A DNA stretch of 32,000 nucleotides from Candidatus Nanopusillus sp. (GCA_028276785.1 JAPYVP010000001.1:30001-62000); one strand, 5' to 3'; counted from the stretch's first letter, positions 6,119 through 24,902 are shown. Translations and numbers: made by a program. The notes: generated by a model from the sequence alone, not told the origin.

Positions 6119-9100
6119 ATGAAAAAGATATATTTGCTATCATTTCTCTTGTTTTCATTATATTCAATATTTTCTCAAGGGTATAATATATGGCATTCAG
6201 AATATTTATATAAACCAACAGCATTTTTAAGTATAAATTTATTAAATAATAATTTATCTGTAGGTCAAACATTATATTATAATGTATATATAAATTATAG
6301 AGATATTTATTATATACCAAATGCATCATTAGTAATACAAATAATACAAAAAACCGATAATAATGGTATCTACCCATTCCAATTTACATCAAATAATCAA
6401 GTATATGAATATGTTATAAAAAACATATATTTACAACCAGGAGAATCTTTAAATATACAATTAAATTATACAATTCCGGATAATCTACCTTCCGGATATT
6501 ATTATGTTGTTGCATATTTGTACACACCTTTAAGCGAAATAGATGGTTTACCATTTATATATTATCCAGGAGTATATAAAGAATTTTATGTAAATAATCC
6601 AAATAATGTTCCGGAAATTTATATTATAAAAGATCATACATATTTAAGTTCTTCTGCAATATATACATGGGGTAGTTTATTATCATCATCAGGATATTAT
6701 TATTCTTCATTAAGTGGACCTACTGGTTATGGTGTTTCAAATTATATTAATTTAACAGTTGGTATATATTCAAGTATAGATACTAATGCTACTTTGAATA
6801 TTTTAATATCCCCATGGGATGATATTCTATATGATCCAATATATAATTATACTGAGGATATACAATTAAAGGAAGGATATAATACAATAAATATTCCATA
6901 TATAAATGTTGCAATATTGAATCCAAATGCATATTCATTAAAAATAAGTTTACTATATAATAATCAAACAAAATCTATATATAGATTAAGATTTATTGTT
7001 CTAGGTCCAACAACAAGATTGGGAGGTGTATATTTACAGGGTAACGGAAATTTAACATTTATAGTAGCCCCATCTCCAGATCATTATACATATCCAGTTA
7101 CTCCAAATGTAGTGGCAGAAGTATATTCAAATATACTTGGATTTAAAGAGAATATACAATTGGGAAATATAAGTTGGAATAATACTAAATTTACTTATGT
7201 AAATCTAAAGTTACCATTAAATTCTACCAGCTTTGATTTATGTATAAACTTATATTCTAATAATAATTTCTTGAATAATAATTTAAATTATGGTTATTGT
7301 ACATATTATTTCATAAATAAATCAAATACTTATGGAATTCCATTAGATAATTTAATTTATGTAAACTATACAAATAATTACTTCTACATATGTTCAAATA
7401 TTTCTGGAATATTAAATATAGGATACAATTCTGAATCAAACATAATATATACTACAAGTATAAATAATAATTGTTTAAATTATACATTGGATAATGGGGT
7501 TTACTATATTTCTTTCTATTCATCTCAATATTCAAATCAATGGGTAATAGATAATACAGTAATGCAAATTCCATATAATAAAAGTATAAACCAAACCCAA
7601 CCAATAAATAATGTACAAAACAATTATAATTATCCAAACTATTATTTAATAATATTAATAATTTTTGCTGTAATAATATTATTTATGATATTGAGAAGAA
7701 AAAAATTATTTATCTTTGCATTAGTTTTATTACCACTATTATTTAATGTAAATTCTCAGGAACTATATTTAAGTACAAGCCAAATATGTACACCATCAGA
7801 TTCATTAAATATAACAACAAGAGGATTTAATGGATCTGTAACAGTTTCTTATAAGTTTTATAATTCATCTAATGTTTCACAAATTTTCGCAAGTGGTAAT
7901 TATAGTTATTCAGGAAGTAATATATCTATTTATAATTATACAGTATACTTTAATAATTTACCATTAAATTTACCAAATAATATAAATTCTGCAATAATAA
8001 ATTATAATATAACTGTTAAAAATTGTACATCATCCAATTGTAGCCAATATTATTATAATGGATCAATATATTTAAATTATCCATATTATTTTGAATATTA
8101 TGCAAACCCCATATATCAAGGATCAAATGATGCTGGACGAATAATTCCAGGTTGTCCTTCTTCAAGTAGGTTATTAAATAGTACATACTTTAACTTTACA
8201 TTAATTTTTCCAAATGGAACGAGTGTAGTTACTAGAACAAATTGTCCTGGATCGGGAGATTCATACTGGGGTCAAAATTTATGTGATTTATATTTAAGTG
8301 ATTATACTAACGATGCTGGAAATTATACATATTATGGAAGATATTATTATAACAATATATCATTTAATCAATCATTTATTAATAATCCATTACAAGTATT
8401 AGTAGCCAATTCTGGAGAATTTACTACTCAATCATGTTCTCATGCATGGACAATAACCAGTGTTAGTTCAAATCCTATGTCTATATACTTTTCATATTAT
8501 GGACCATATTCAGGATCATATTATACATATTATAATGGAATATATGTTTTAGCGCAGAATACTTCTGTAGGATTTAATGTAAGTAGTGGATATAACATTT
8601 TGTGTAGTGATGGTGTTACAAGAAATAATATACCTTCTGTTGTTGCTTGGTTATATAGTTCAAATCAATATTATAATCCAAGTTCTTTCCAATATGTACA
8701 AGGTATATCGAATCTTCCATTTAATTTCACACAATACGGTATAAGTAGAAATATTGTTTATAATATATATCCAAATAAAGGATTATTAATATCAAAAAAT
8801 TTCCCATCTGGAGATTCTTACTTTACTTTGTATAATTTTAGTAATAATGCTGGTTATTATGTAATATATAGAGATTATATAAAAACAATATGTGATAATC
8901 CGGTGAATTATATATGTGATGCAAATGGAAATTTGTGTAATATTAGTTATATAACTGGACAGGCACAAGGATGGTTACCAATATCTCCAGAACCCGGATA
9001 TTATTTATTAGTAATAAATCCAAATGCTACTGTATACTTACAAAATGTAACGTATTATCCATATATTTACAATGTAGATCCAGGTGTTGCAATTTATATC

Positions 9101-10381
9101 GGTAATATATCTAACGTTGGAATTGGAAATCTTACAATAATTGTAAACCAAACACTTCCAGCTAAATCAATGAGCTTCTTATTACAACAGCAACAAAATT
9201 CACCACTATATATTTATTTCCCAACAAATTTATGTCCACATTATGACTGTAGAATAAATTATAGTGTAACATATCAAAATGCGTATGGATTGACAGTTTA
9301 TCCTTCAGTAACATATTACGGATATGTAGATATCAAATGGAATACATTAAATATATATACTAATCCATCATTAACGCAGATAACATATGGAAAACCATCA
9401 AACATAACATTGGCAATACAAAATACAGGACCAGTACCTGCTAAAAACATATCCGTACAAAATGTATATTATAATCCAAATTGTATACAGGTATTAAATA
9501 CTGGTGGTCAGATAGATTCATTAGATACGAATAGCATAGGTTATTTAAATGTAGAAATTAATATAACAAATCTATATTGTTCTTCACAGGATTATAATAT
9601 AACGTTTACAATTTATGGATGGAATACCTACATATATAATTATTCAATAATATTACCAGTAAGTTATATAATTTCTCCACCAAACGGAGCACAATTACAA
9701 TCATTAACAACATTCAATATAGTAGATAAGAATGCACAAGAATGTTATATAATATTTAATGGAGCTCAATTCTCTAGAAATTGTGATTCAAATTTTGTAT
9801 ATCAACAATATATGTGTGCAGGATCATTATGTAATACGCAAATTCAATCAGTAAATAATTATGCAAAGTTCTTTGGAAATTATATGTACTATAATTATTT
9901 AATGAATCAAACATCAATAATAGGAATAGCAGTTCCAACAAATGTAATAGGTTTATATGTAGGACAAGAATATGAATATATAATCTTGATAAAGAATTTA
10001 GTACCAACAAATATTCAATGTTCTCTGACACCAATTCCATCAACCACAAATAATAATGCAATTGTTACTAACTATAGTGTAAATGGTGTAAATAATAATG
10101 TGTTTACTATAAGTCCTTACGGATCTTCAGAATTAAACATAAGAATCTTGGGAGCTTCTAGTGGTGTAAGTAATTTAATATATGGCATATCATGTAATTC
10201 TACATATGGGTCTTCAACATTTAGTACTCAAGTTCCAATATACATATTGGGACCAAATAATGTAATAGCCAATTATACGCAACCTTCTCAAATAGTAGTA
10301 TCTGAAGGAGTATCTTTAACAGATTTAATTGGAATTGGAAGTTTAATATTGGGATTATTTGTTTTGCTTAGTATAATCTAA
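6119..10381 (+). CDS. Giant (1420 aa) secreted/anchored surface glycoprotein-like protein with two ectodomains
   Basis: Signal peptide MKKIYLLSFLLFSLYSIFSQG. An internal TM hairpin spans residues 508-547 and there is a C-terminal TM anchor (LIGIGSLILGLFVLLSII). The protein has dozens of N-x-S/T sequons. Segments such as LQPGESLNIQLNYTIPDNLPSGYYYV and GKPSNITLAIQNTGPVPAKNISV resemble CARDB/COG1361 S-layer-type beta-sandwich domains. Confidence 0.7.
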   Translation: MKKIYLLSFLLFSLYSIFSQGYNIWHSEYLYKPTAFLSINLLNNNLSVGQTLYYNVYINYRDIYYIPNASLVIQIIQKTDNNGIYPFQFTSNNQVYEYVIKNIYLQPGESLNIQLNYTIPDNLPSGYYYVVAYLYTPLSEIDGLPFIYYPGVYKEFYVNNPNNVPEIYIIKDHTYLSSSAIYTWGSLLSSSGYYYSSLSGPTGYGVSNYINLTVGIYSSIDTNATLNILISPWDDILYDPIYNYTEDIQLKEGYNTINIPYINVAILNPNAYSLKISLLYNNQTKSIYRLRFIVLGPTTRLGGVYLQGNGNLTFIVAPSPDHYTYPVTPNVVAEVYSNILGFKENIQLGNISWNNTKFTYVNLKLPLNSTSFDLCINLYSNNNFLNNNLNYGYCTYYFINKSNTYGIPLDNLIYVNYTNNYFYICSNISGILNIGYNSESNIIYTTSINNNCLNYTLDNGVYYISFYSSQYSNQWVIDNTVMQIPYNKSINQTQPINNVQNNYNYPNYYLIILIIFAVIILFMILRRKKLFIFALVLLPLLFNVNSQELYLSTSQICTPSDSLNITTRGFNGSVTVSYKFYNSSNVSQIFASGNYSYSGSNISIYNYTVYFNNLPLNLPNNINSAIINYNITVKNCTSSNCSQYYYNGSIYLNYPYYFEYYANPIYQGSNDAGRIIPGCPSSSRLLNSTYFNFTLIFPNGTSVVTRTNCPGSGDSYWGQNLCDLYLSDYTNDAGNYTYYGRYYYNNISFNQSFINNPLQVLVANSGEFTTQSCSHAWTITSVSSNPMSIYFSYYGPYSGSYYTYYNGIYVLAQNTSVGFNVSSGYNILCSDGVTRNNIPSVVAWLYSSNQYYNPSSFQYVQGISNLPFNFTQYGISRNIVYNIYPNKGLLISKNFPSGDSYFTLYNFSNNAGYYVIYRDYIKTICDNPVNYICDANGNLCNISYITGQAQGWLPISPEPGYYLLVINPNATVYLQNVTYYPYIYNVDPGVAIYIGNISNVGIGNLTIIVNQTLPAKSMSFLLQQQQNSPLYIYFPTNLCPHYDCRINYSVTYQNAYGLTVYPSVTYYGYVDIKWNTLNIYTNPSLTQITYGKPSNITLAIQNTGPVPAKNISVQNVYYNPNCIQVLNTGGQIDSLDTNSIGYLNVEINITNLYCSSQDYNITFTIYGWNTYIYNYSIILPVSYIISPPNGAQLQSLTTFNIVDKNAQECYIIFNGAQFSRNCDSNFVYQQYMCAGSLCNTQIQSVNNYAKFFGNYMYYNYLMNQTSIIGIAVPTNVIGLYVGQEYEYIILIKNLVPTNIQCSLTPIPSTTNNNAIVTNYSVNGVNNNVFTISPYGSSELNIRILGASSGVSNLIYGISCNSTYGSSTFSTQVPIYILGPNNVIANYTQPSQIVVSEGVSLTDLIGIGSLILGLFVLLSII

Positions 10382-12588: not shown

Positions 12589-13425
12589 ATGTTTGCACAT
12601 GCTCAAGGTGAATATAATGAATCAAAATGGATAATTATTGGAATTCCATCAGAAATTGGTAGTTTATCACATGTAAAAAATTATATTGAAGGGCCTGAAT
12701 CCATTAGAGATGCATCTTACAGAATATTTTCTCCAATATTTGGGGAAATAAATATGGAAGATATATATGACTATGGAGATATAGATTTGGAAGATATAAA
12801 GGATCTGGATAAATTATATGAAAAAATATATAAAGAAATTAAAAAAATATATAGGAAAGATAAAAAGTACATATTTTTAGGAGGAGATCATTCAATAACA
12901 TATCCAATATTAAAAGTTATTAAAGAAAACTGGGGGGATTTTTACTTATTGTATTTTGATGCCCATCCAGATATTCACCCCGACCCATATCCAAATTATC
13001 AAAGTTTTATTTATCATTTAATAAAGGAAAATTATATTGAACCTGAAAAAATTATTTATGTTGGTATATCTAATTTATCGTTCGAAGAAAAAAATATAAT
13101 AAAGGAGTGGGTGATAAGATATTATAATCCTTTGGATGTTTGGGATAATATAAAAGAAATTTCAAAGGAGATATCAAATATATTAGAAAATAAAAATTTA
13201 TATATTTCAGTTGATATAGATGTATTTGATACAGGATGTGGACATTGGTTAGAAGGTATTGGAATCAGACCATATCATTATTTTAAGATTATAAAAGAAT
13301 TAAGAAATATAAATTTAATTGGTTTTGATTTAGTAGAATTATTTTCAAACGAAGTATGTGATAATTTGGCTGCAAAAATTGTCATTGAATCGATAGCAAT
13401 CTTTAATAAATCTATGCAATCATGA
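12589..13425 (+). CDS. speB: Agmatinase / arginase-family ureohydrolase
   Basis: 278 aa. All three arginase-family metal-binding motifs are present: LGGDHSITYP, FDAHPDIHPD and SVDIDVFD. Confidence 0.8.
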   Translation: MFAHAQGEYNESKWIIIGIPSEIGSLSHVKNYIEGPESIRDASYRIFSPIFGEINMEDIYDYGDIDLEDIKDLDKLYEKIYKEIKKIYRKDKKYIFLGGDHSITYPILKVIKENWGDFYLLYFDAHPDIHPDPYPNYQSFIYHLIKENYIEPEKIIYVGISNLSFEEKNIIKEWVIRYYNPLDVWDNIKEISKEISNILENKNLYISVDIDVFDTGCGHWLEGIGIRPYHYFKIIKELRNINLIGFDLVELFSNEVCDNLAAKIVIESIAIFNKSMQS

Positions 13426-14059
13426 AATGTGTTTGATTAATTCTTTTTACATATACTGTTACAAGTTGATAAAATGTAATATTATTTACTGAATAACATG
13501 GTATGTAATTACATATAATATTTCCATTTGTATTTTCTGTACATGTTATATTTCCATATAAATTTGTTGGAAATAAAAATACAAAAGTTTGATTTGAAGT
13601 ATTTTTATTACTCAAACAAAAACTATATAAGAAATAATAAAAGTCTGAATAATAATTTTTACATATGGTAAATTTGATATAATCTAAAGAATAATATACT
13701 GAAATTGGATACGTATATGTATTACAATTTCCATTGAAATTTATAATTCCAAAACTATAATTACCAATTTCTGCTCTAAATGTATAGGGAAATATTGTAC
13801 AATTTGGAAGCATATTATAATATGTTTGATTGAATTGCCTTATTTTTTCCATTGTTGTGAAGTATATTGGATAATTTGGATATCCTATACAATTTGGAGA
13901 AAATAGGTTGTATATTATTTCTTGTTGATATGAAAAAGAAGTTTGTTCTTTATAATTTGTTAAATTAATGCTAGAAAATATCGCTAATAAAAGTATCATA
14001 CCTAATAAAAATAATACAGTTAATATTGTTATAAATACTATGGAAAATTGTCCTTTCAT
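13412..14059 (-). CDS. Pilin-like protein with canonical class III signal (operon gene 12)
   Basis: 215 aa. The N-terminus MKGQFSIVFITILTVLFLLGMILLLAIF fits the archaeal prepilin motif (K-G | Q-x-S followed by a hydrophobic helix). The mature part is Cys-containing and rich in N-x-S/T sequons. Confidence 0.6.
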   Translation of the reverse strand: MKGQFSIVFITILTVLFLLGMILLLAIFSSINLTNYKEQTSFSYQQEIIYNLFSPNCIGYPNYPIYFTTMEKIRQFNQTYYNMLPNCTIFPYTFRAEIGNYSFGIINFNGNCNTYTYPISVYYSLDYIKFTICKNYYSDFYYFLYSFCLSNKNTSNQTFVFLFPTNLYGNITCTENTNGNIICNYIPCYSVNNITFYQLVTVYVKRINQTHFMIA

Positions 14060-14067
14060 CTTTTATA

Positions 14068-15303
14068 TTAGAGATAATCTTTTATACATTCCTCTGGAAA
14101 TGGTATTGTTTCTGGGCATGTTGGGTTGTTAGGACATTGTCCAGGTAAACATACTGGACATTCTTCTCCACCAATTATACACATATAGCATTCAACTGGG
14201 ATTGAATAATAATATGGGAATGTAAATATTATTTTTGAATCTTCTCTACTTATGCTTACATCACCACATCCATCTATTGCGGAACATGAATATTTTTGAT
14301 CTTGTAATGTACAACTTTTCGATATTGCTTCTTTATTTGTTTCGTTGTATATTCCCGTACAACTATATATACAATTTAGATAATATTTGTTTGTTACATT
14401 TTCATAAAAAACTATTGAAGTAATAGTTATGGATTGTGGATATGTATTCCCATTATAATATACATTATATCTATTATCAGAACATTTTAATATTACTCTA
14501 CAAGCAATTTCTCTAGGATATAAACATATTTCACATAATGGAATATCCACACACTTATGTGGGATTATTGTTTCGTTACATTGAATATACGGATTATTTG
14601 AAAATTGTTCAAATCTCCTTGCACAATTATTGGTTGTAACATTATTAAATAATGTATTTACACAATCTTGAAAAGAACATTCGGGAAATTCTTCTAAAGA
14701 AAATTGGTATGCTAGATTATATAAATAAAATGCTGGATTGTTTGTTATATTTGATGTAGATGCATAGGGAATTATTGAACCAGAGGAAGGTCCAGTAATA
14801 TTTATATATACTCCTTGAACATAAACAGGAAAGTTATAATTATATTTTCCGGAATATATATCATCACATGTTCCTAGAATACCAGCTCGATAATTATTTG
14901 AAAAATTGAAAGATATATTATATGGATGATAGTATCTATATGCAAACAAATATTGTTCCCCATAACTTATTAAGCTTGTAAATCCAGAAGTTAGCAAATT
15001 ATTGTAATATTGAATCGCATTTTCACATGGTTGTGGTAATATACACTGAGGAGGAAAAGAAGCCCAGTTTTCTTTTCCCCAACCACTTGTTCCTGCTACA
15101 TAAGATTTTGCATAACCCTCCTGTGTTAGTGCTGTTTGTAAATATCCTAAAAGGTAGTTTGATAAAGTTGATAAAGATGTAAATCTACCAAAAACAACAT
15201 TCTGATTATAATTATATGTTAATGCATAAAAAGATAGAAGAATTATTAATATAGAAACTGTCAAAAATAGAACTACATAAATACTTTCTGTTTGATTTCT
15301 CAT
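14068..15303 (-). CDS. Cysteine-rich secreted/anchored protein with pilin-like N-terminus (operon gene 11)
   Basis: 411 aa. The N-terminus is MRNQTESIYVVLFLTVSILIILLSFYAL. I count 24 Cys, with a dense C-terminal cluster ECYMCIIGGEECPVCLPGQCPNNPTCPETIPFPEEC. Its start shares an ATGA overlap with the stop of the upstream gene. No family recognised. Confidence 0.6.
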   Translation of the reverse strand: MRNQTESIYVVLFLTVSILIILLSFYALTYNYNQNVVFGRFTSLSTLSNYLLGYLQTALTQEGYAKSYVAGTSGWGKENWASFPPQCILPQPCENAIQYYNNLLTSGFTSLISYGEQYLFAYRYYHPYNISFNFSNNYRAGILGTCDDIYSGKYNYNFPVYVQGVYINITGPSSGSIIPYASTSNITNNPAFYLYNLAYQFSLEEFPECSFQDCVNTLFNNVTTNNCARRFEQFSNNPYIQCNETIIPHKCVDIPLCEICLYPREIACRVILKCSDNRYNVYYNGNTYPQSITITSIVFYENVTNKYYLNCIYSCTGIYNETNKEAISKSCTLQDQKYSCSAIDGCGDVSISREDSKIIFTFPYYYSIPVECYMCIIGGEECPVCLPGQCPNNPTCPETIPFPEECIKDYL

Positions 15304-16505
15304 AATTTTAATTTAACATGAAGGTATATAAGTGTTAATATAATCATTGTTACTACCAATCCATGTATTATACCTAGTATTTTCATTATATTTGGTATAG
15401 ATAATATACTTAATGGAGGACCTCCATATACTGCAAATTCTAGTAACTCTCCAATTACAACTTGTATTATAAGTAATATTCCAATTGTAATACCAATAGC
15501 TTTTTTAATTGGTTTTTTAACATTACTAAATAGTTTATAATGTATTCCCATGAAGAAAAATATCATAGCCATAAGATATCTTGTATGTAGAGCATAAGAA
15601 GTAAAATCTTTATATGATGTAAATAATGCGCCCAAAAATATTATCAAGACCATAGTAAATAGTAAGAAGTAATTTGTGAAATGATCATTTTTCATGCTCT
15701 TATAAATTAAGAAATAAATAATAAATTCAAATATGGATAAAAATATAAGAGCTTTATATACAGTAATCTGATATTTTACAATTAAACCCTCTGAAGCTAG
15801 ATTACTATAAGATGATAACCCGTATATAGCTATAATAAGTTGTAATATTATAATAAAAAATATTAATAAAAATATGTACTTTTTATATTTATAAATTTCT
15901 GATAATTTTTTGAATATTTTTGTTCTTACTATAAGTATTTCATTGCCATTAGAATATACAATCAGAAATAGAAATATGGCAAATACAATAAACAAAGTTG
16001 AATATAATATTTTGAAAGTATAAATATTTGATAATGCAAAATTAATGATTGAACCAACTATAGGCCCTGTTGCTACTTCTAAATCTATGGTTATAACGTT
16101 GATTACCAATTCAAGGAAAAATAGTATTATAAATAAAACTAAAGAAAGCACATAAAATATTAAAGATTTTTTTGAAATATAAAAGTTATTTTCAAATAAA
16201 TAATATCCTAGAGCAAATGCTATAAAGTAAAATATCCAATAATTTATTGAAAGACCAAGTGATAAACGTACTAATAAAGGCCAATCTTGATAATAGAGAG
16301 TTCCAAAAATTATAAATGGTATAAGTAAAAATACTGACTTATATATCAAAGAAGTATTCTTCGAATTTTTTAATATAAAAGATAATAAAAATAGATATAT
16401 TGTACCAAAGATAATTATGTTAATATTAAATTTACTATCAAAAGTAAAAAATAAGAATATTAATAGATATAAAAGAAATAAAATTTTATCTTGTTTTTTT
16501 ACCAT
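15300..16505 (-). CDS. Polytopic membrane protein, Cys-free, unknown function (operon gene 10)
   Basis: 401 aa with about 11 hydrophobic helices. It overlaps the upstream gene by 7 nt and the downstream gene by 4 nt. No family recognised. Confidence 0.6.
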   Translation of the reverse strand: MVKKQDKILFLLYLLIFLFFTFDSKFNINIIIFGTIYLFLLSFILKNSKNTSLIYKSVFLLIPFIIFGTLYYQDWPLLVRLSLGLSINYWIFYFIAFALGYYLFENNFYISKKSLIFYVLSLVLFIILFFLELVINVITIDLEVATGPIVGSIINFALSNIYTFKILYSTLFIVFAIFLFLIVYSNGNEILIVRTKIFKKLSEIYKYKKYIFLLIFFIIILQLIIAIYGLSSYSNLASEGLIVKYQITVYKALIFLSIFEFIIYFLIYKSMKNDHFTNYFLLFTMVLIIFLGALFTSYKDFTSYALHTRYLMAMIFFFMGIHYKLFSNVKKPIKKAIGITIGILLIIQVVIGELLEFAVYGGPPLSILSIPNIMKILGIIHGLVVTMIILTLIYLHVKLKL

Positions 16506-18127
16506 ACTGTTAATTTAGAAACAAGATATCCGCCTAGAAAAGGCATATCTACTGGCAAATATATGTAATATACATATATGTTTGTGTTTGGTGGTATTGG
16601 ATATCCTAAACTTACACTATTTTGACTACTTTGGTAAATATAAGCGTTTAATTCTTCTTTGTTTCCTGTATCGGTAATACAATATGCTCTTGCCATTGCA
16701 ACGCCATTTGATCCAGCATGTGGATCATAATATACTGCAGAAATTATAAACTGATTTGTATTTGGATCCCTATCATTTATTACCCATCTAGTAATATTAA
16801 ATCTATAAAATCCTTGAGCATATGTATTAATACCACCCAAGTAAACTAAAGGACACTCCTTTCCAACAATAATTCCGTTTATATTTTGTATATCATTGTA
16901 TACACCAGTTGGACATCTTATTGTTCTTCCATTTATTTTATATTCACACAAAGGATCTGCTGCTAAAAATACATAATCTGGTTGTCCATTTTTATTTAAA
17001 TAAGAAATATATAGAGCTACTGTTTCATGCCATGGATAATCTATAAATACTTGTTGACAATTTGGTAGTATATTTACTATACCTCTATAAAAAGATCCTA
17101 CAACTAATACCTGACCACCCCCACAAAGGGAATTACCTGTATATCTTGTACCAAATTCTTGTTGACATGCTGCATCTAAATATTCTCTTGGGATTATAAA
17201 ATCTGCTAGTCTATTTATGTCAGTAGCAGTTTTATAAACAGGAGGACCTTGATAATAATAAGGTGTAGAGGTTAAATATTGATTATTAGTTGCTGGACAA
17301 GATCCTGTATATATGCATAAGAATCCAGAAAATAAATTTGGTAAGTTAGATACTGGATGAGCTGGCGTACCACCTACACCTAAAAAATTTGGAAATAAAT
17401 GCCATTCACTATTGGGGCAATATACAGAAGCTTCAGTAAAATTATGATTTGGAAGTATTCTTGATAGAGGTTCACAATATCCTAATCGTATGGCTATTTC
17501 TTGTGATTGTTGTGGATAAAATGATTGTAAGCCCCATGCATTTGTTGATAATGTTTGATGAAAAGGTGCTGTTGCATTGACCCATCCAGCTCCATATATA
17601 GTTAGGCTTACTGGTATATCAATATTCTGTGTATAATTATTTGTAAAGAAATACGTATAATTCCATTCATACCATTGTTTGCCATTTTGATCTGGTGGAG
17701 GTCTCATTGAACATGGATCCCAATTATTTATATTGCCAGCTACTATGAACATCTGGACAATCCATCCAGTTATTGGTGGTACAAAATATATTGTAAGGTT
17801 CCATCTATTTCCATATATACTATTGAAATAATTTGTTATAGTCTGCGATATATTTGTACATATATTTTGATTTATGCAGTATGTATCGTTTCCAGAAGAT
17901 GAAAAATAAGATAATAAAAATGCGTAGGATAAGTTAACTTTATTATCATTAACATATGATAATAAAACAATACTATTCTGGATTGTTAGTGTGTATTGAT
18001 TTTCTACATTATATGTTTGCATTGTTCTTTGATTATAGTTACTTGATATTAAGGTATATAATAGAACTAATAATGATATTATTGAAATTATAATAACAAA
18101 TGTTATAGTATTTATTTGGTTTCTCAT
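16499..18127 (-). CDS. Large secreted/anchored protein with pilin-like N-terminus (operon gene 9)
   Basis: 542 aa. The N-terminus is MRNQINTITFVIIISIISLLVLLYTLI. The rest is a Cys-, Trp-, Tyr- and Pro-rich ectodomain with sequons. No family recognised. Confidence 0.6.
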   Translation of the reverse strand: MRNQINTITFVIIISIISLLVLLYTLISSNYNQRTMQTYNVENQYTLTIQNSIVLLSYVNDNKVNLSYAFLLSYFSSSGNDTYCINQNICTNISQTITNYFNSIYGNRWNLTIYFVPPITGWIVQMFIVAGNINNWDPCSMRPPPDQNGKQWYEWNYTYFFTNNYTQNIDIPVSLTIYGAGWVNATAPFHQTLSTNAWGLQSFYPQQSQEIAIRLGYCEPLSRILPNHNFTEASVYCPNSEWHLFPNFLGVGGTPAHPVSNLPNLFSGFLCIYTGSCPATNNQYLTSTPYYYQGPPVYKTATDINRLADFIIPREYLDAACQQEFGTRYTGNSLCGGGQVLVVGSFYRGIVNILPNCQQVFIDYPWHETVALYISYLNKNGQPDYVFLAADPLCEYKINGRTIRCPTGVYNDIQNINGIIVGKECPLVYLGGINTYAQGFYRFNITRWVINDRDPNTNQFIISAVYYDPHAGSNGVAMARAYCITDTGNKEELNAYIYQSSQNSVSLGYPIPPNTNIYVYYIYLPVDMPFLGGYLVSKLTVW

Positions 18128-18981
18128 TTTAGATAATATAATAGCATAAATAGGCCTATTATTACTATAATTATAACTATTGCTGCTGGCAAAATCAAAT
18201 TAACGTTGTTGTTGTTATTAGTACTTACATTTGGTTGTGGATAAATTAATTGTTGGTTATTATTTGTTAAATTTACTTCAGTTTGATTTATACATTCAAA
18301 TACGCCAGTACAAGATATATAAACAATATTTGGTGGTGGACATTTTTGTAGAAATTCTTGATATAATTGATTTAATGAATAATTGTATGGACATCTAAAC
18401 CAGTTACCTTGGAAAGATAGATTTTCTGGACAATAACCACAGCCGTAAAAATTATGGTAGTATGATAATAGTTGCTGATAGGATTCATTACCTGCTAAGT
18501 AAGAAGGTGGTATATATGGGGGATCAAAACAAGGGTAAATTTGATTAGAACATGGTGGATAATACCAAGGCATATTTGGACAATTTAATAGACTATCACA
18601 TAATGTTTGATTCTCCTCTGGTATAATTACATCTTGATATGCAGATGGAGGAATTAATAGATATGGACTAACTAATGTACCGTTTGGATATTTACAATAA
18701 CTGCTATTTACATATATCAATCCATAACGAGTACAAAATGAATACTCTGGAGGTACATTATTTTCATAATATTGTAGAGCATCAAAATATGTATTATTTA
18801 TAATACAATAGACACCTGTATCATTTGTATAATAAGTTCCTCCACCATATTCACAATAAACTGCTATTGGATTTTTCATAGAATATATACTATTCATAGA
18901 GTATATGTATATAATATATAAAAAAATTATAAAAATAATTATAATAAGTGCTAATAAATTTCTATTTTGCGAGAGTAACAT
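18124..18981 (-). CDS. Cys/Pro-rich bitopic protein with DUF333-like module (operon gene 8)
   Basis: 285 aa with an N-terminal hydrophobic helix (LLALIIIIFIIFLYIIYIY) and a C-terminal TM anchor (ILPAAIVIIIVIIGLFMLLYY). NPIAVYCEYGGGTYYTNDTGVYCI resembles the DUF333/COG3042 motif (NPAsvyC...GG...G.C). Confidence 0.55.
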   Translation of the reverse strand: MLLSQNRNLLALIIIIFIIFLYIIYIYSMNSIYSMKNPIAVYCEYGGGTYYTNDTGVYCIINNTYFDALQYYENNVPPEYSFCTRYGLIYVNSSYCKYPNGTLVSPYLLIPPSAYQDVIIPEENQTLCDSLLNCPNMPWYYPPCSNQIYPCFDPPYIPPSYLAGNESYQQLLSYYHNFYGCGYCPENLSFQGNWFRCPYNYSLNQLYQEFLQKCPPPNIVYISCTGVFECINQTEVNLTNNNQQLIYPQPNVSTNNNNNVNLILPAAIVIIIVIIGLFMLLYYLK

Positions 18982-20518
18982 TTTGTATTGCTACAATTGA
19001 AAACTTAGGAAATGATAGGCCGAAAGGCGACTGCTCAAATGGTATGTATATGTATCCATCTTGCATCCAATAAACCCCTCCACAAGGTGCTCCCATTGCA
19101 GTGCTGCAAGCTCGATAATTTGAATAATATTTATAGCACTCACTTTTACTACGAGTTATCATACGCATTCTACCATCTGAAGTAAAAGCTAAGCATCCTG
19201 TTACACGTCCCCAAGAATTTTGAATTATCCAACATTTTGGAGTTCCATATACTTCTTGACATAGTTGGGATTGTGTATCATATCCAACCAACAGCATAGC
19301 ATGACCCGTATCACCTACAAAATATAAAGGATACATGTTTGGATTAGATCCGCCCTCTCCAGCCATATAGCCACTAACCGTCAATGGTCCATAACACAGT
19401 AAATATTGAATTATTTCCTGACTTGATAGAGACTTCCCTCTTTGAACTAATTCCATAACTTTGTGTGAATAATACATTGGTGAAGTAGGTCCATTATAAT
19501 CAAAACCACATACATCATCAGGATAACTGATGGCATCGTCATTCGTACTACATCCTTTTAAAGTAGAACTATAATATCTTCGTCCAGGATCTGCTGGTAT
19601 ACCATATTGAGATGTATATAGTATACCGTAGTATGGCAAACCACCATTACAACCTATATTATGTTCACAATATTTTGGAGTATTTGGATATCTATAATTG
19701 CACTTTATTGCTATGTATGCGGCAGATAATGTTAATCCTTCATTAGGTTTATTATTTCTTATCATATAGATTGCAGCAATCCCGTTTGAAGATGCAAATG
19801 CCCAATAGTCTCCACAAACCCCTTGATCGCCTACTGGAGGTAAATAATTATTCCCATCTACATCACCCCAGAAAAATTTTGGTTGTCCAGTATATTTAAC
19901 TAAACATCTACTATTTGGGTCAATAGTATTATTAGTTTGATTAGTTTGATTTGTATTATTGTTATTTGTTTGATTGGTATTATTTGTCTGATTAGTCTGA
20001 TTATTTTGATTATTATTATTATTCTGATTTTGATTATTGTTATTATTTTGATTATTATCTGGATTTATAACTATAATAGTCCCGTTAGGCAAATATCGAT
20101 TAAATATAAAAATTGTATCATTAAAATCTGCAGAAATAAAAATAGTATTATTTGTACTAACCAAATATATATAATTATTTGGATATAAAAAACTTACATT
20201 TTGACCATTATTGTATAAAATTACGGATTTATTTTGAAAATTAATCGTATAATTATTATTATTATATTGGATTATTAATTCGTTGTCTCTTGAATATAAT
20301 ATAATTCCACTTGGTATATCAACTTTTATATAATATGTACCTTGCATATTATTTATTGTATCCTGTAAATTTTGTAAATTATTGACAAAATTTTCAAATA
20401 TGAATTTTTCTTGTTCCCTTTTAACATTTGTAGAATATTGATAATAAATTAAGAAAGATAATGATACGATTAATAATATTATTGCTACTGAAAGCAAATT
20501 TAACTGATTCTTTTTCAT
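18962..20518 (-). CDS. Pilin-like N-terminus, beta-rich domain, Asn/Gln/Thr stalk and papain-fold (C1-like) domain with Cys-to-Tyr at the nucleophile position (operon gene 7)
   Basis: 518 aa. The N-terminus is MKKNQLNLLSVAIILLIVSLSFLIYY. PPVGDQGVCGDYWAFASS aligns with papain TPVKNQGSCGSCWAFSA. GHAMLLVGYD aligns with the catalytic His motif and IIQNSWG with the Asn motif. The Tyr codon TAT was read directly at 19805-19807 on the minus strand. Confidence 0.7.
   Translation of the reverse strand: MKKNQLNLLSVAIILLIVSLSFLIYYQYSTNVKREQEKFIFENFVNNLQNLQDTINNMQGTYYIKVDIPSGIILYSRDNELIIQYNNNNYTINFQNKSVILYNNGQNVSFLYPNNYIYLVSTNNTIFISADFNDTIFIFNRYLPNGTIIVINPDNNQNNNNNQNQNNNNNQNNQTNQTNNTNQTNNNNTNQTNQTNNTIDPNSRCLVKYTGQPKFFWGDVDGNNYLPPVGDQGVCGDYWAFASSNGIAAIYMIRNNKPNEGLTLSAAYIAIKCNYRYPNTPKYCEHNIGCNGGLPYYGILYTSQYGIPADPGRRYYSSTLKGCSTNDDAISYPDDVCGFDYNGPTSPMYYSHKVMELVQRGKSLSSQEIIQYLLCYGPLTVSGYMAGEGGSNPNMYPLYFVGDTGHAMLLVGYDTQSQLCQEVYGTPKCWIIQNSWGRVTGCLAFTSDGRMRMITRSKSECYKYYSNYRACSTAMGAPCGGVYWMQDGYIYIPFEQSPFGLSFPKFSIVAIQNVTLAK
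19925..20062 (-). repeat. Low-complexity Asn/Gln/Thr coding repeat (stalk/linker)
   Basis: Encodes PDNNQNNNNNQNQNNNNNQNNQTNQTNNTNQTNNNNTNQTNQTNNT. The DNA is made of degenerate GTTTGATTA / GTCTGATTA-type short repeats. It includes at least 7 N-x-T sequons. Confidence 0.8.
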
Positions 20519-20557
20519 TATGATCTATTAATATCTAAAAAATTTTTTAAAATTTTT

Positions 20558-20998
20558 TTAACTTGGGTTTTCTATATAAATTGTTACATCTGTTGGAGAT
20601 GTTTTTTTAACAAGCAATGGTATTTTTTGATTTGGACTCCCACGTGACAATTCATAGAATAATCCGGAAGTATAATATTGAATCATATTATTTGTTGTAT
20701 TTATTATTACATTGCAAGGCACTGTATAATTATAATATTTGTCATATATGTAACAACTTAGTAAATTACCATTACTATATATATAATTTAGATATTTGTT
20801 TATTTCAATAGTAATATGAAATTCTGTTCCATTATTGGAATAGCACGCTCTTTCAACTGTTGTATATAAATTTTGACATGAAGATATATTTTTATATAAT
20901 AATTGAGTCTCATTATTTATGCCTACAAATTTAAAATATAAATATAAAGATAAACCAAAAGCAACAATTGCTATAATTATCCAAAACCACTTTTCCAT
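20558..20998 (-). CDS. Small signal-anchored protein (operon gene 6)
   Basis: 146 aa. N-terminal helix MEKWFWIIIAIVAFGLSLYLYF, four Cys and several sequons. No family recognised. Confidence 0.5.
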   Translation of the reverse strand: MEKWFWIIIAIVAFGLSLYLYFKFVGINNETQLLYKNISSCQNLYTTVERACYSNNGTEFHITIEINKYLNYIYSNGNLLSCYIYDKYYNYTVPCNVIINTTNNMIQYYTSGLFYELSRGSPNQKIPLLVKKTSPTDVTIYIENPS

Positions 20999-21000
20999 CT

Positions 21001-21414
21001 TTATCCTTGAATATTAATATAAACATAATTTCCTGCCGAATAAATTAATATATACTTTCCAGGATTTATATTATAATTACAATTTTGCATTACAACATTC
21101 GGATCTATGCTGTTTACTTTATTTATTAAATCTTGACATGTAAATGATGGTCCTTGATAATGAATCAAATAACATAAACCTTGGGCTTTTTTATAATAAC
21201 ATGATACTACATTCATTGCAACAGTTGTCATTGAATTTACATTTGTTTCTACTATAGTTTGTGTATTATTATATTTTGGCATTATGTTATCTACATATGA
21301 AGATACGTTCCCTCTTAATACAAATATTATTCCTATAATTGTTATGGTAACAATTATCCCGATAAATATTAAAAAAGTATAATTAATTGGAAGCTCTTGA
21401 ATTCTCATTGCCAT
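21001..21414 (-). CDS. Small pilin-like/signal-anchored protein (operon gene 5)
   Basis: 137 aa. N-terminus MAMRIQELPINYTFLIFIGIIVTITIIGIIFVL. It shares a CY...CY core and a beta-like C-terminus (KYILIYSAGNYVYINI) with gene 4. Confidence 0.5.
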   Translation of the reverse strand: MAMRIQELPINYTFLIFIGIIVTITIIGIIFVLRGNVSSYVDNIMPKYNNTQTIVETNVNSMTTVAMNVVSCYYKKAQGLCYLIHYQGPSFTCQDLINKVNSIDPNVVMQNCNYNINPGKYILIYSAGNYVYINIQG

Positions 21415-21884
21415 ATTATAATATAACTATTGTTGTATATTATAAATATGCTGTTGTATGGATATATTCTTCCTTCACTATTATTTAAACGGAATATAAT
21501 TTTATTTGGATTAAATTTAGTATAATTTTGTACATATTGTATTAATGTTGTCGAATTTAGGACAATATTCTTATTTATATAAACATCATAACATATATCA
21601 AATAATTTATTTGTATTTACATTATTATTGTAACAATTTAATATTAATCCTACTATACTTGAATAAATTGTATCAATACTCTCATTTGAATATATAACAT
21701 TTATTGCAGAAGGATAATATTCTTTGCATGATGGGGAAAAACCGCCCTGTGATATTAATGTTTGACAATAATATGCTTGAGAATTACTAAAGAATTTTGT
21801 ATATATAATGCTTAATATAACTACGGCGGATATTATTGCTATTATTATTATAAATATAGTATCTATTGCTATGTCGTTCTTCAT
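21405..21884 (-). CDS. Small pilin-like/signal-anchored protein (operon gene 4)
   Basis: 159 aa. N-terminus MKNDIAIDTIFIIIIAIISAVVILSIIY. Contains LNCYNN...DICYDVYI and a C-terminal RIYPYNSIFIIYNNSYIII. Overlaps both neighbouring genes. Confidence 0.5.
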   Translation of the reverse strand: MKNDIAIDTIFIIIIAIISAVVILSIIYTKFFSNSQAYYCQTLISQGGFSPSCKEYYPSAINVIYSNESIDTIYSSIVGLILNCYNNNVNTNKLFDICYDVYINKNIVLNSTTLIQYVQNYTKFNPNKIIFRLNNSEGRIYPYNSIFIIYNNSYIIIWQ

Positions 21885-22165
21885 ATATAATGAATACTTC
21901 CGTTATAAATATATATAATTCTATAGCCAGAAGGTATTGTTATTCCATTTATTGTACAATTCTCACTAAGGAACACTTTAATATCAATTATTTCTCTAAA
22001 ACTTTTATCGTATAAATTTTTTAATTGCTGACAATTAATAGTTTGTATATTCTCTCCACCCAAATTATTTTTTACATTATAAATATAATAAAAAGAAAAT
22101 AGACTAGCAGCTACAATTAATATAAAGGTTATTATAATCCAATATATTGAATTTTGAAGTTTCAT
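21881..22165 (-). CDS. Small pilin-like/signal-anchored protein (operon gene 3)
   Basis: 94 aa. N-terminus MKLQNSIYWIIITFILIVAASLFSFYYIY and C-terminal GYRIIYIYNGSIHYI. It has 4-nt overlaps at both ends. Confidence 0.5.
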   Translation of the reverse strand: MKLQNSIYWIIITFILIVAASLFSFYYIYNVKNNLGGENIQTINCQQLKNLYDKSFREIIDIKVFLSENCTINGITIPSGYRIIYIYNGSIHYI

Positions 22166-24132
22166 AATTTTATATCTGTTGGCAAATATGGGCCAAATAT
22201 TGTATATACTACTAATATTCCTACTATTGAAAATATTACATAAAATATTGTTCCAAACAGAAGATTCCTACCTATATAATATGAAGTCATTGTACTATCA
22301 AAGCCATATTTTATTCCAGCACTCATATATGATGTTATTATTACATATTCTATAAAAAATATGCCTATTATTGCTACAAAAAATGTTGGTGGTATTAAAT
22401 TATATAGATTAAATGTGGTTACAATAAAATTGAATAAACTAGATCCACCTCCCAGACCAAAAGATTGGCTTATCAATTGAAAGAAGTATGCAAGTGCAAA
22501 AAGCATTGAAACTATACCATTATTAAAAACTGTAACCATTGCAGAAATTAATGGTACTAGATTTCTTGATGTCATATCTATTAATCCAATTATTTCATTT
22601 AATATTTTTCTTACACTATATCTTATGTTGTTTACATTTTCTAAATTTGTTGATACGTTATATGCAATTTTTGATAAGGTTTCAGGACCCTTTGATGCAG
22701 AAGTAACCAAAAGTTGCATAGACTCTCTTACTAATTTTGATGGATATAAATTTAATGAACCAATTTTTGGATCAAATATAGATGTATTTAAATCATAACC
22801 CCTTCTTAAATTATATAATGTTGTTTTTAGGAAGTTTTCCATAACACCGGAAGATTTTATTATCTTATAATTATAATAGGTTTTTTCAATCACTATTTCA
22901 AATGGATAACCATCTTCTAATAGTGATGCAAATTCGTATACAACAATTGGAAACTCATTTTCTATTTCTTCAATTTCATATATTTTTTTAACTTTTTGGA
23001 AAGATGTCAAATAATAATAAGACCCAATACCTAAACCCAATCCCAGAGGTAATGTTAAAGTTAAAACAGAATATATTAATGCTCTATCTTGATAAACTAT
23101 ATTTAAATAATCACTTAAAAATCCTTGTGGGATAAGAGCAATTTTTATAGCTAAAGAAATTAAATGATAAATTCCTATAATTGCAATCGATCCCAATATT
23201 ATTGAAATTATTATTGCCGGAACTTCTTTATTTCCTAATTTAAATTTTCCAGGTTTTGGTAAATCCTTTGCTAATGATAAATCTGGAACGGCAAATGCAA
23301 ACGGATTTTTTGATAGAAAATTTTGAATTATTAAGAAGGTAATGACAGGTAGAATTATTATATACGAAAATGCTATGAAATAGAAACTTACAGTATTTAA
23401 CAAAAACACAGATATTATTGGTAACATCATCAAACTGACTATAGGCATCATTACTAAGAAAGATATAATAACTGTTGCCGGTTCTTTCAGAGCATCTACA
23501 TATGATTGGGATTTTTCTAAAGATTTCTTTAACACCCATCCTAATATTCTGTCTAATAATTTATTTATATCATCAATAGACGTTTTATATTTAATATTTA
23601 CAATATGTGTCATTGCATATACAAAATCTGGACTTAAATAAAACCATCTTCTCTGATAATATTCCAGTGCTGATTCAATATCTTTAAACTTACTTGTTTC
23701 TAAATTATATAATAATGATTTAAAGTCTGTTGCAATATAACCTTTCATATAATATGCTACATATTTTATTCCATTTTCTAGATTAGGATTTCTTTTTAGA
23801 TATAAAGATAAATATAATATTATCCATACAATTTCTGATGTTACCTGTATTCTAACAATTTGTGTATAGAATATTGGATAATATGCAAAATAGAATGATA
23901 ATATTAGTAAAGATATTAATAAAGAAAAAGCTAATTGAAAGCTTACAAAACTTAAAATAAGATATATAATTATAGAAAATATTGTTATAGTTATTACAGA
24001 GGAAAATATGTTATCTGGATTAGTATTTAATCTATTTAACCATAAATGAAATGCATATTTTTTATATATAGAATTGGGGGCTTTTATTTTTATTAAATTA
24101 AAATTATTGTAAAAATACTCAAAAAAATTCAT
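22162..24132 (-). CDS. FlaJ/TadC/PilC-like polytopic platform protein (two T2SS-F-like repeats), candidate (operon gene 2)
   Basis: 656 aa. Two soluble helical modules are each followed by TM bundles: YPIFYTQIVRIQVTSEIVWIILYLSLYLKRNPNLENGIKYVA...DIESALEYYQRRW and EIENEFPIVVYEFASLLEDGYPFEIVIEKT...LYNLRRGYDLNTSI. This matches the duplicated T2SSF-domain layout of archaeal FlaJ/PilC. The gene sits next to a class III signal protein. Confidence 0.5.
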   Translation of the reverse strand: MNFFEYFYNNFNLIKIKAPNSIYKKYAFHLWLNRLNTNPDNIFSSVITITIFSIIIYLILSFVSFQLAFSLLISLLILSFYFAYYPIFYTQIVRIQVTSEIVWIILYLSLYLKRNPNLENGIKYVAYYMKGYIATDFKSLLYNLETSKFKDIESALEYYQRRWFYLSPDFVYAMTHIVNIKYKTSIDDINKLLDRILGWVLKKSLEKSQSYVDALKEPATVIISFLVMMPIVSLMMLPIISVFLLNTVSFYFIAFSYIIILPVITFLIIQNFLSKNPFAFAVPDLSLAKDLPKPGKFKLGNKEVPAIIISIILGSIAIIGIYHLISLAIKIALIPQGFLSDYLNIVYQDRALIYSVLTLTLPLGLGLGIGSYYYLTSFQKVKKIYEIEEIENEFPIVVYEFASLLEDGYPFEIVIEKTYYNYKIIKSSGVMENFLKTTLYNLRRGYDLNTSIFDPKIGSLNLYPSKLVRESMQLLVTSASKGPETLSKIAYNVSTNLENVNNIRYSVRKILNEIIGLIDMTSRNLVPLISAMVTVFNNGIVSMLFALAYFFQLISQSFGLGGGSSLFNFIVTTFNLYNLIPPTFFVAIIGIFFIEYVIITSYMSAGIKYGFDSTMTSYYIGRNLLFGTIFYVIFSIVGILVVYTIFGPYLPTDIKL

Positions 24133-24137
24133 TACCT

Positions 24138-24902
24138 TTAACTTGTTGCGGCTGGTATGTTAATTAACTGGTTGTATGGTACTCTCATCAAGAATTGACA
24201 TAGTGGCATACCGTTATCATTATTATTTATACCCAGTGCTGCACAATTTCCTGTTACTACTAATATTCCATTACTGACTATCAAGTTTAAATTACATCCA
24301 TGTGCACTATTATAATATTTAAGAACTTTTAACAGTGCAACGAATACTTGGTTTGTAATCCATGTTGGTAATTGTGCGGAACACTGTGCTGGACCTGGAT
24401 ATAATATCTGGGATGGAGAAGAAATGTAAATCGTTGCTTGTCCAGTTTCTACATTAAATGATGTGGTAGAAGAATAATTTCCAAATACATAACTTGTTGC
24501 TTGTACTGGACTATAATATAATGTATCAATGTAATGGCGACATGTTAAATACATACATGCTAATGGTGTTATTTGATATCCCTGATATTGACATTGACTA
24601 GAAGGACCTCCGTATAATTGCAATACTACACTACATGGAACTGCATTTGAACAGATATAATACCCAGGACTTGCTTGTACAAGCCCATTTCCTATGTTTT
24701 CATACCTTGTACAGAATGTTACTGGATCTTGTTGACAATAGTTTAAACAATTAGCAACTGCTTGTTGTATTTGTGTGTTGGATATTTGGCTAATATTTGA
24801 TGATTGTTGCTGAAATAGTCTAATTACAATAACCGCTACTACTAACATTATTATTATTACGAATATCAACTGTACAGCCATATCTATACCCCTTCTTTTC
24901 AT
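24138..24902 (-). CDS. Class III signal (type IV pilin-like) cysteine-rich protein, first gene of the operon
   Basis: 254 aa. MKRRG|IDMAVQLIFVIIIMLVVAVIVIRLF has a basic residue then Gly, followed by a ~22-residue hydrophobic helix, as in a prepilin signal. I count 12 Cys. A promoter-like TATA lies at -24..-31. Confidence 0.6.
   Translation of the reverse strand: MKRRGIDMAVQLIFVIIIMLVVAVIVIRLFQQQSSNISQISNTQIQQAVANCLNYCQQDPVTFCTRYENIGNGLVQASPGYYICSNAVPCSVVLQLYGGPSSQCQYQGYQITPLACMYLTCRHYIDTLYYSPVQATSYVFGNYSSTTSFNVETGQATIYISSPSQILYPGPAQCSAQLPTWITNQVFVALLKVLKYYNSAHGCNLNLIVSNGILVVTGNCAALGINNNDNGMPLCQFLMRVPYNQLINIPAATS

Follow-up and report, generated by a model that had tools for sequence, protein, structure and literature searches.

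A probably inactivating, strain-private cysteine-to-tyrosine change at the nucleophile position of a papain-family protein in Candidatus Nanopusillus

Papain-fold homologues in which a serine takes the place of the catalytic cysteine while the other active-site residues are kept, such as Plasmodium SERA5 and the silicateins, carry a lineage-wide substitution for which a non-proteolytic or altered role has been documented. Here, we analyzed a gene for a 518-aa protein of the papain (C1) family, encoded on the minus strand of a 32,000-nucleotide stretch of DNA from Candidatus Nanopusillus sp. (GCA_028276785.1 JAPYVP010000001.1:30001-62000; the whole stretch is hereafter called the window), in which the position of the nucleophile is occupied by a tyrosine. 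The original prediction, drawn from the sequence of the window, had proposed a pseudo-protease displayed on a glycosylated stalk behind a pilin-like N-terminus, which could serve as an adhesin head binding peptides or ligands. Overall, our observations point instead, with a probability that we put at about three in four, to a real, recent, strain-private, and probably inactivating missense allele of a conserved extracellular cysteine peptidase.

The affiliation of the protein to the papain family (MEROPS C1, subfamily C1A; PF00112), already proposed as a C1-like fold in the original prediction, was borne out by the Pfam scan, in which residues 224–461 matched Peptidase_C1 with an E-value of 6.1e-17 and 62.9 bits (gathering cut-off, 20.7 bits). 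This match extends over both lobes and lies far above chance level, such that the gene can be regarded, from its sequence, as that of a papain-family homologue. The Q-x-x-C-G-x-[C]-W-A-F, G-H-A-x-L-L-V-G-Y, and N-S-W-G motifs of the family are present, the bracketed position excepted, and the best matches among the sequences of the Protein Data Bank (PDB) are dipeptidyl peptidase 1 (DPP1) and cathepsin L (phmmer). The protein differs from papain-family C1A enzymes, however, in that the place of an I29-type inhibitory propeptide (to which the Pfam scan found no match at E <= 1) is taken by a membrane helix followed by a conserved module of 150 aa and a low-complexity spacer, by a Cys-rich insertion after NSWG and, in the window strain, by the tyrosine at the nucleophile position. 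The span initially attributed to the domain, 19019–19906 (residues 205–500), does fall in the C1 head but stops short of its end, as the head is conserved in the family alignment up to the C-terminus (residue 518, nucleotide 18965).

With regard to the active site, direct reading of the minus strand gives GGG GTT TGT GGA GAC TAT TGG GCA TTT, in which TAT occupies 19807–19805, in agreement with the coordinates and the residue number (Tyr238) first assigned to this codon. Gln232, Cys235, His406, and Asn434 are retained, as initially described, both by direct reading and in the alignment. When compared with PDB chains by phmmer, Tyr238 is aligned to the catalytic Cys of DPP1 (CGSCYSF) and, in a cathepsin L chain, to the Ala that occupies the nucleophile position (CGSAWAF); in both DPP1 and cathepsin L, His406 is aligned to the catalytic His (tnHAvllvgy) and Asn434 to the Asn of NSWG. 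Cys235, three residues before Tyr238, is invariant (40/40 sequences) and aligned to the conserved disulphide Cys of the papain family. Judged on these residues, the window protein is a C1 homologue devoid of the nucleophile Cys (papain Cys25) by which an active enzyme is recognized.

The comparison with relatives confines this tyrosine to a single strain. In a protein alignment of the window protein and 39 full-length orthologues from Nanopusillus and Nanobsidianus (51–88% identity), the nucleophile column reads Cys in all 39 orthologues and Tyr in the window protein only. At the nucleotide level, a metagenome collection was scanned with a degenerate DNA pattern permitting TRY at the nucleophile codon, and the 32 loci detected all carry TGT or TGC; with locus L003 included, the tally amounts to 29 TGT and 4 TGC (33 loci), TAT being confined to the window and to one metagenome contig (L001) considered below. 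The nearest relative (L027, 90.2% nucleotide identity over the whole gene) reads TGT, and three divergent members of the family keep the Cys as well, namely P0043, the furthest of them at 34% identity (GICGNCWAN), P0061 (GSCGDCWAY), and P0062 (GDCGDCWAF). Further away, 137 Cys and zero Tyr were counted at motif matches among 145 distant C1 representatives, in which the ten motif matches without Cys occur outside the C1 domain, at an unrelated site upstream of it. On these counts, a tyrosine at the C1 nucleophile position appears unusual, and a literature search for tyrosine-substituted papain-like pseudo-proteases returned no evident example among its top 12 results. The number of cysteines is also informative: it is odd (15, 17, or 13) in 38 of the 39 orthologues, as expected from disulphide pairs plus one free nucleophile, and is 14 in the window protein, as expected if one free catalytic thiol were lost from a set of disulphide pairs. 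The original prediction had itself held that orthologues uniformly carrying Cys would refute it, as the sign of a strain-specific inactivating mutation; Cys is what they carry, which points to a strain-specific change rather than to an evolved pseudo-enzyme. Active-site variation of another kind was observed in two orthologues forming a subclade at 51% identity (P0038 and P0039), which have Thr or Ser instead of the oxyanion-hole Gln (PPAETKFCGACWAV) and Phe instead of the Trp of NSWG, with Cys, His, and Asn still kept.

To situate the change in time, we looked at the private substitutions, branch lengths, and selective constraint of the window lineage. At columns invariant in the other 39 sequences, the window protein harbors two private changes (C238Y and V492I), the other sequences having 0–6; among the seven closest sequences, its private changes are three (C238Y, G276R, and V492I), all of them involving G-to-A. 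With L002 as outgroup, the branches of the window and of L027 are of equal length (~0.036 and ~0.034 nonsynonymous substitutions per site [dN], respectively), and the pairwise Nei–Gojobori ratio of nonsynonymous to synonymous substitutions (dN/dS) in the C1 domain is 0.28–0.40 for pairs with the window and 0.33–0.51 for other pairs. By this reckoning, C238Y lies on a short terminal branch and the mutation would be recent. The retention of Gln, His, and Asn within an intact open reading frame (ORF) is then uninformative as to a new function, since it is expected soon after any mutation. Pseudogenisation in progress was considered and rejected, as no signal of relaxed selection was found in dN/dS, branch lengths, or private changes, and the same three measures gave no positive evidence for neofunctionalisation on the window lineage. 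The two conserved parts of the protein do not evolve at the same pace: from one Nanopusillus strain to another, dN/dS is 0.28–0.51 in the C1 head, about threefold that of the N-terminal module (0.09–0.27).

On this basis, the family may be envisioned as a membrane- or filament-anchored extracellular cysteine peptidase, probably glycosylated and disulphide-stabilised, which is expected to be an active protease because its Cys-His-Asn triad and its oxyanion Gln are conserved. In the window strain, a single G-to-A transition (TGT to TAT) would have swapped the nucleophile Cys238 for Tyr, thereby removing the thiol and putting a bulky side chain in the cleft, and the head is expected to be inactive because the thiol nucleophile is lost. 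The peptidase would be co-inherited with a T4P-like (type IV pilus-like) surface apparatus of an obligate ectosymbiont; it would itself be located at the surface and could act where the cell touches its archaeal host, either by cutting host envelope proteins or by harvesting peptides. Redundancy is one possible reason why the allele is tolerated; drift in a clonal population subject to bottlenecks and an advantage gained from not cutting are others. It would then constitute a natural, probable null allele of a protease conserved across obligate archaeal ectosymbionts and, provided that strains bearing the allele can be compared with strains lacking it, a ready-made test of the need for this protease in life on a host.

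Several points nevertheless weigh against this reading. That the Tyr238 head is most likely catalytically dead is deduced from general papain-family catalysis, and the structural model of the active-site cleft, which the original prediction had put forward as a check, is of no help in this respect: the full-length AlphaFold2 (AF2) model computed from the 40-sequence alignment has a mean predicted local distance difference test (pLDDT) of 56, with a confident R-lobe and an L-lobe below 50, such that the lobe holding residue 238 is unusable and the geometry of the Tyr unreadable (its top PDB matches in Foldseek, falcipain-2, cathepsin B, and cruzain, are weak, at E 0.01–0.02). An intact ORF and a dN/dS that is not raised are also compatible with a retained non-catalytic function. 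A compensating C1 paralogue may exist beyond the 32-kb window. Last, the two contigs bearing TAT may come from related samples and are thus perhaps not fully independent, and the allele is documented at the level of assembled contigs.

Among the alternatives, a sequencing or assembly artefact, with TGT as the true codon and a wrong base at 19806 (e.g., through cytosine deamination damage), is suggested by the very nature of the change: it is one transition, at a position with no other variation in more than 70 sequences, and on the coding strand it is a G-to-A, the typical signature of deamination. However, a metagenome contig from the Joint Genome Institute (JGI; Ga0392390_00285, L001) encodes an identical 518-aa protein with the same TAT, and since three other bases distinguish it from the window over 7232 bp (17401, 18620, and 18904), the two are separate assemblies. 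Moreover, the exact protein was reported in three index blocks by a sequence look-up, and G-to-A is likewise the change behind the two remaining private substitutions of the window lineage, in line with real AT-biased mutation at 26% G+C. A random sequencing error, a worry raised from the outset, is accordingly an unlikely source of TAT, and we hold an artefact of any such kind to be quite improbable.

If the allele is real, the question becomes whether the head was lost as an enzyme or turned into something else. An evolved pseudo-protease, that is, a non-catalytic peptide- or ligand-binding adhesin head on a stalk, would be in line with the intact ORF, the retention of Gln232, His406, and Asn434, the lack of elevation of C1 dN/dS in pairs with the window (0.28–0.40), the occurrence of the allele in two slightly different contigs, and the faster evolution of the head than of the N-terminal module throughout the family, as expected of a host-facing surface. 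What speaks against it is the distribution of the residue, Tyr being found in one strain when Cys is found in the 39 orthologues, the 33 further loci, and the three divergent members; with three private substitutions on the terminal branch, the kept residues and the unchanged dN/dS become almost uninformative, no accompanying changes of the cleft were seen, and canonical substrate-like binding would probably be hindered, not favored, by a Tyr in place of the nucleophile. Rarity of this kind, limited to one strain, is how a deleterious mutation presents itself. We therefore consider the adhesin-head function unlikely: a Tyr-type papain pseudo-enzyme, if true, would be a notable addition to dead-enzyme homologues, but what is left of it in view of the data is a missense allele private to one strain, an ordinary thing when taken alone. 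A more ambitious scenario, in which the C1 proteins are carrier-plus-head subunits of a T4P-like filament showing a protease to the host and C238Y is a selected, nascent switch to a non-cutting, host-binding module, strikes us as highly doubtful. We give hardly any credence to a head that is still an enzyme, whether through Tyr238 itself, a neighbor such as Cys235, or a switched chemistry: His406, Asn434, and Gln232 are indeed intact and Cys235 lies three residues away, but the latter is the invariant residue aligned to the papain-family disulphide Cys, the even Cys count (14) fits a protein in which all Cys are paired, the distant C1 representatives offered 137 Cys and no Tyr at motif matches, and no papain-fold enzyme using a Tyr as nucleophile is known to us. 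The reading of C238Y as a recent and probably inactivating missense allele is thus the one that we retain. The features of the locus are collected in table 1.

Table 1. Coordinates of the C1 gene, of its active-site codons and domains, and of the neighboring cluster genes in the window.
Feature	Position	Strand	Basis or remark
C1-family protein gene, 518 aa	18962..20518 (incl. stop codon)	-	ORF list, Pfam, orthologues
TAT codon, Tyr238, nucleophile position	19805..19807	-	Direct reading; relatives TGT or TGC
CAA codon, Gln232, oxyanion-hole Gln (papain Gln19 equivalent)	19823..19825	-	38/40 Gln
CAT codon, His406, catalytic His (papain His159)	19301..19303	-	40/40 His
AAT codon, Asn434, triad Asn in NSWG (papain Asn175)	19217..19219	-	39/40 Asn
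Conserved N-terminal module, aa 1-150: charged leader, hydrophobic helix, long helix to aa 57, beta-sheet domain	20069..20518	-	
Low-complexity Asn/Gln/Thr spacer, aa 151-204, putative glycosylated stalk	19907..20068	-	Sequence; disordered in model
C1 head, aa 205-518, with Cys-rich insertion and C-terminal extension after NSWG	18965..19906	-	Pfam, family alignment
254-aa protein, first cluster gene, N-terminal hydrophobic helix, 12 Cys	24138..24902	-	
656-aa polytopic membrane protein, putative diverged two-repeat T2SSF (TadC/FlaJ/PilC-like) platform	22162..24132	-	Transitive homology; ~9 hydrophobic segments
Four small genes (146, 137, 159, and 94 aa), N-terminal hydrophobic helix, 2-4 Cys	20558..22165	-	Candidate pilin-like/surface subunits
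Downstream cluster genes	13412..18981	-	285-, 542-, 411-, and 215-aa Cys-/sequon-rich proteins with N-terminal helix; 401-aa polytopic protein

Beyond the allele itself, the carrier-plus-head architecture of the protein and the pilus-like cluster in which its gene is embedded are, in our opinion, more interesting than the tyrosine. The N-terminus reads MKKNQ followed by LNLLSVAIILLIVSLSFLIYY, its hydrophobic segment (residues 4–22) is the sole one found in the protein by hydropathy, and the layout is that expected of a class III signal peptide, in which a short leader bearing positive charges precedes a hydrophobic helix of ~20 residues. In the family, the N-terminus conforms to M-K-[KRG]-x-Q-L-N, with Gln5-Leu6-Asn7 invariant; the residue before Gln5 is variable in orthologues (N/Y/G/D/S/L) when Gly or Ala is expected at the -1 site of a prepilin peptidase, such that this position would be an atypical cleavage site for such an enzyme. 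In the AF2 model of residues 1–152 (pLDDT 75.8), a helix (3–57) is followed by eight strands and a short helix, an outline that may recall a pilin; Foldseek retrieved no significant PDB match for this modelled module, and no pilin, and neither the homologue search nor the PDB fold search detected relatives of it outside the C1-protein family. The pilin-like N-terminus originally proposed stays at the level of a resemblance: a diverged TadC/FlaJ-like gene does lie in the vicinity, but the lack of a PDB pilin match and the variable residue before Gln5 speak against it.

The proposal of a glycosylated stalk holds for one of its two components: an Asn/Gln/Thr-rich spacer does link the N-terminal module to the head, and it carries 8 N-x-T sequons out of the 15 N-x-S/T of the whole protein, but its glycosylation is a presumption from these sequons. 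The length and composition of the spacer vary in the family, as it is G-rich in P0061, P/S-rich in P0062, and N/E-rich in P0043. On the opposite strand of the spacer lies a plus-strand ORF (19937–20188, 83 aa) rich in Ile and Leu, which was rejected as a gene, being a composition artefact, i.e., the reverse-complement shadow of the spacer.

The family to which the C1 protein belongs is small and isolated. All homologues come from Nanoarchaeota (Candidatus Nanopusillus, Nanobsidianus stetteri, and Nanopusillaceae), where orthologues already bear database labels such as "Peptidase C1A subfamily [Ca. Nanobsidianus stetteri]" and "C1 family peptidase [Nanopusillaceae archaeon]". When 1.84 billion cluster representatives were searched exhaustively with a profile, five of them came out at E <= 1e-30, the next matches being generic C1 enzymes at ~1e-16, and a word-indexed search for distant C1 homologues returned family members alone, even at E <= 10. 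Two proteins stand out by their architecture. In strain YN1, the gene YN1_4420 (P0062 / P0208) encodes a homologue of the 146-aa module found upstream of the C1 gene in the window, fused to a C1 head via a Pro/Ser-rich linker and replacing the usual N-terminal module; the YN1 module and that of the window (20558–20998) are 55% identical over 110 aa (E 8e-40), and on a 773-kb contig the TadC-like YN1_4460 and YN1_4420 are separated by four locus tags. The use of a different carrier in YN1 suggests modular surface proteins. The nearest protein outside the family, P0063 (482 aa, Logan; E 1e-16), is built in much the same way: it begins with a hydrophobic helix, continues with a module made of a long helix and beta structure and with a region rich in Cys, and ends with a C1 head containing SNICKLRYGKNGCWIIRNSWG, which hints that the carrier-plus-protease design may be wider than Nanopusillaceae.

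From a genomic perspective, the window bears the hallmarks of an archaeal chromosome, with genes for TFIIB, the proteasome alpha subunit, LonB, a split RNA polymerase subunit B, Rpb5, S24e, and SBDS, and a G+C content of 26%. The C1 gene is the sixth of twelve co-directional genes (13412–24902, minus strand). Ten of the proteins of this cluster, including the C1 protein, have an N-terminal hydrophobic helix, even Cys counts (2–24) and, for the most part, many sequons, and the 656- and 401-aa proteins are polytopic membrane proteins without Cys. Four cluster proteins share an M-[KR]-(x)-[NG]-Q start, namely MKKNQ, MKGQ, and, in two of them, MRNQ. Scans of the eleven neighboring cluster proteins against Pfam and NCBIfam gave no match above threshold; in particular, the four small genes upstream of the C1 gene gave no family hits, and residues 12–68 of the 254-aa protein resemble the N-terminal part of the GspG pseudopilin model only weakly (E 0.015, far below the cut-off). 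The 656-aa protein, which had no direct Pfam hit and whose family profile found nothing among PDB sequences, can be connected to the T2SSF family in a transitive manner: P0055 matches it with an E-value of 2e-53 and matches T2SSF (PF00482) with 31 bits (E 2.7e-7; cut-off, 25.2), and P0056 and P0059 match PF00482 more weakly. These homologues are full-length at 25–28% identity, and the T2SSF domains map to residues 105–236 and 399–515 of the 656-aa protein, which is the two-repeat layout of TadC/FlaJ/PilC platforms.

This neighborhood is shared gene for gene with two Nanopusillus metagenome-assembled genomes, in which the neighbors are mostly 91–98% identical (80% for one of them) and the C1 protein is 83% and 81% identical. 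The C1 protein is among the most divergent of the cluster and is the most divergent of all when compared with L002. The downstream gene order is conserved in L002, L003, and L036, and the gene order of the cluster is kept in L036, whose C1 protein is 34% identical. As for the three differences between the window and L001, they are all nonsynonymous and are confined to the next two genes downstream, both for surface proteins (the 542-aa protein has H243N, and the 285-aa protein has P121L and I26M), which fits the excess of nonsynonymous single-nucleotide polymorphisms reported in nanoarchaeal surface proteins (PMC6142677). Elsewhere in the window, a plus-strand ORF of 1420 aa (6119–10381) has a signal-like N-terminus and a C-terminal hydrophobic anchor (residues 1397–1415), 54 N-x-S/T sequons, 25 Cys, and no Pfam match, features that make its product a candidate for an S-layer or large surface protein.

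The literature searched contains no description of a protease head on a T4P-like carrier and no paper found to combine "Nanoarchaeota" with "peptidase C1", and what it offers on Nanopusillus and proteases or pili is general T4P background alone. In this regard, the cognate pilins of some T4P systems in Nanoarchaeota have not been identified (PMC4858521). The cluster described here resembles archaeal T4P-like systems, in which a TadC/FlaJ platform goes together with pilins bearing a class III signal peptide (Makarova, Koonin and Albers 2016, PMC4858521; Jarett et al. 2018, PMC6142677), by the association of a T2SSF-related protein with many small Cys-rich proteins bearing an N-terminal helix. 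It differs from them in that no secretion ATPase or prepilin peptidase (Peptidase_A24) was detected among the scanned window ORFs, and in that the C1 protein has a variable residue before Gln5 and an N-terminal module without significant match to a solved pilin. The comparison with SERA5 and silicateins is equally two-sided: the window protein shares with them a papain-fold domain that lacks the catalytic Cys and keeps the rest of the active site, but its substitution is private to one strain, the orthologues all carrying Cys. Because the substitution is conserved in no lineage, the window protein does not, as far as the sequences allow us to judge, belong with the evolved non-peptidase homologues exemplified by SERA5 and the silicateins.

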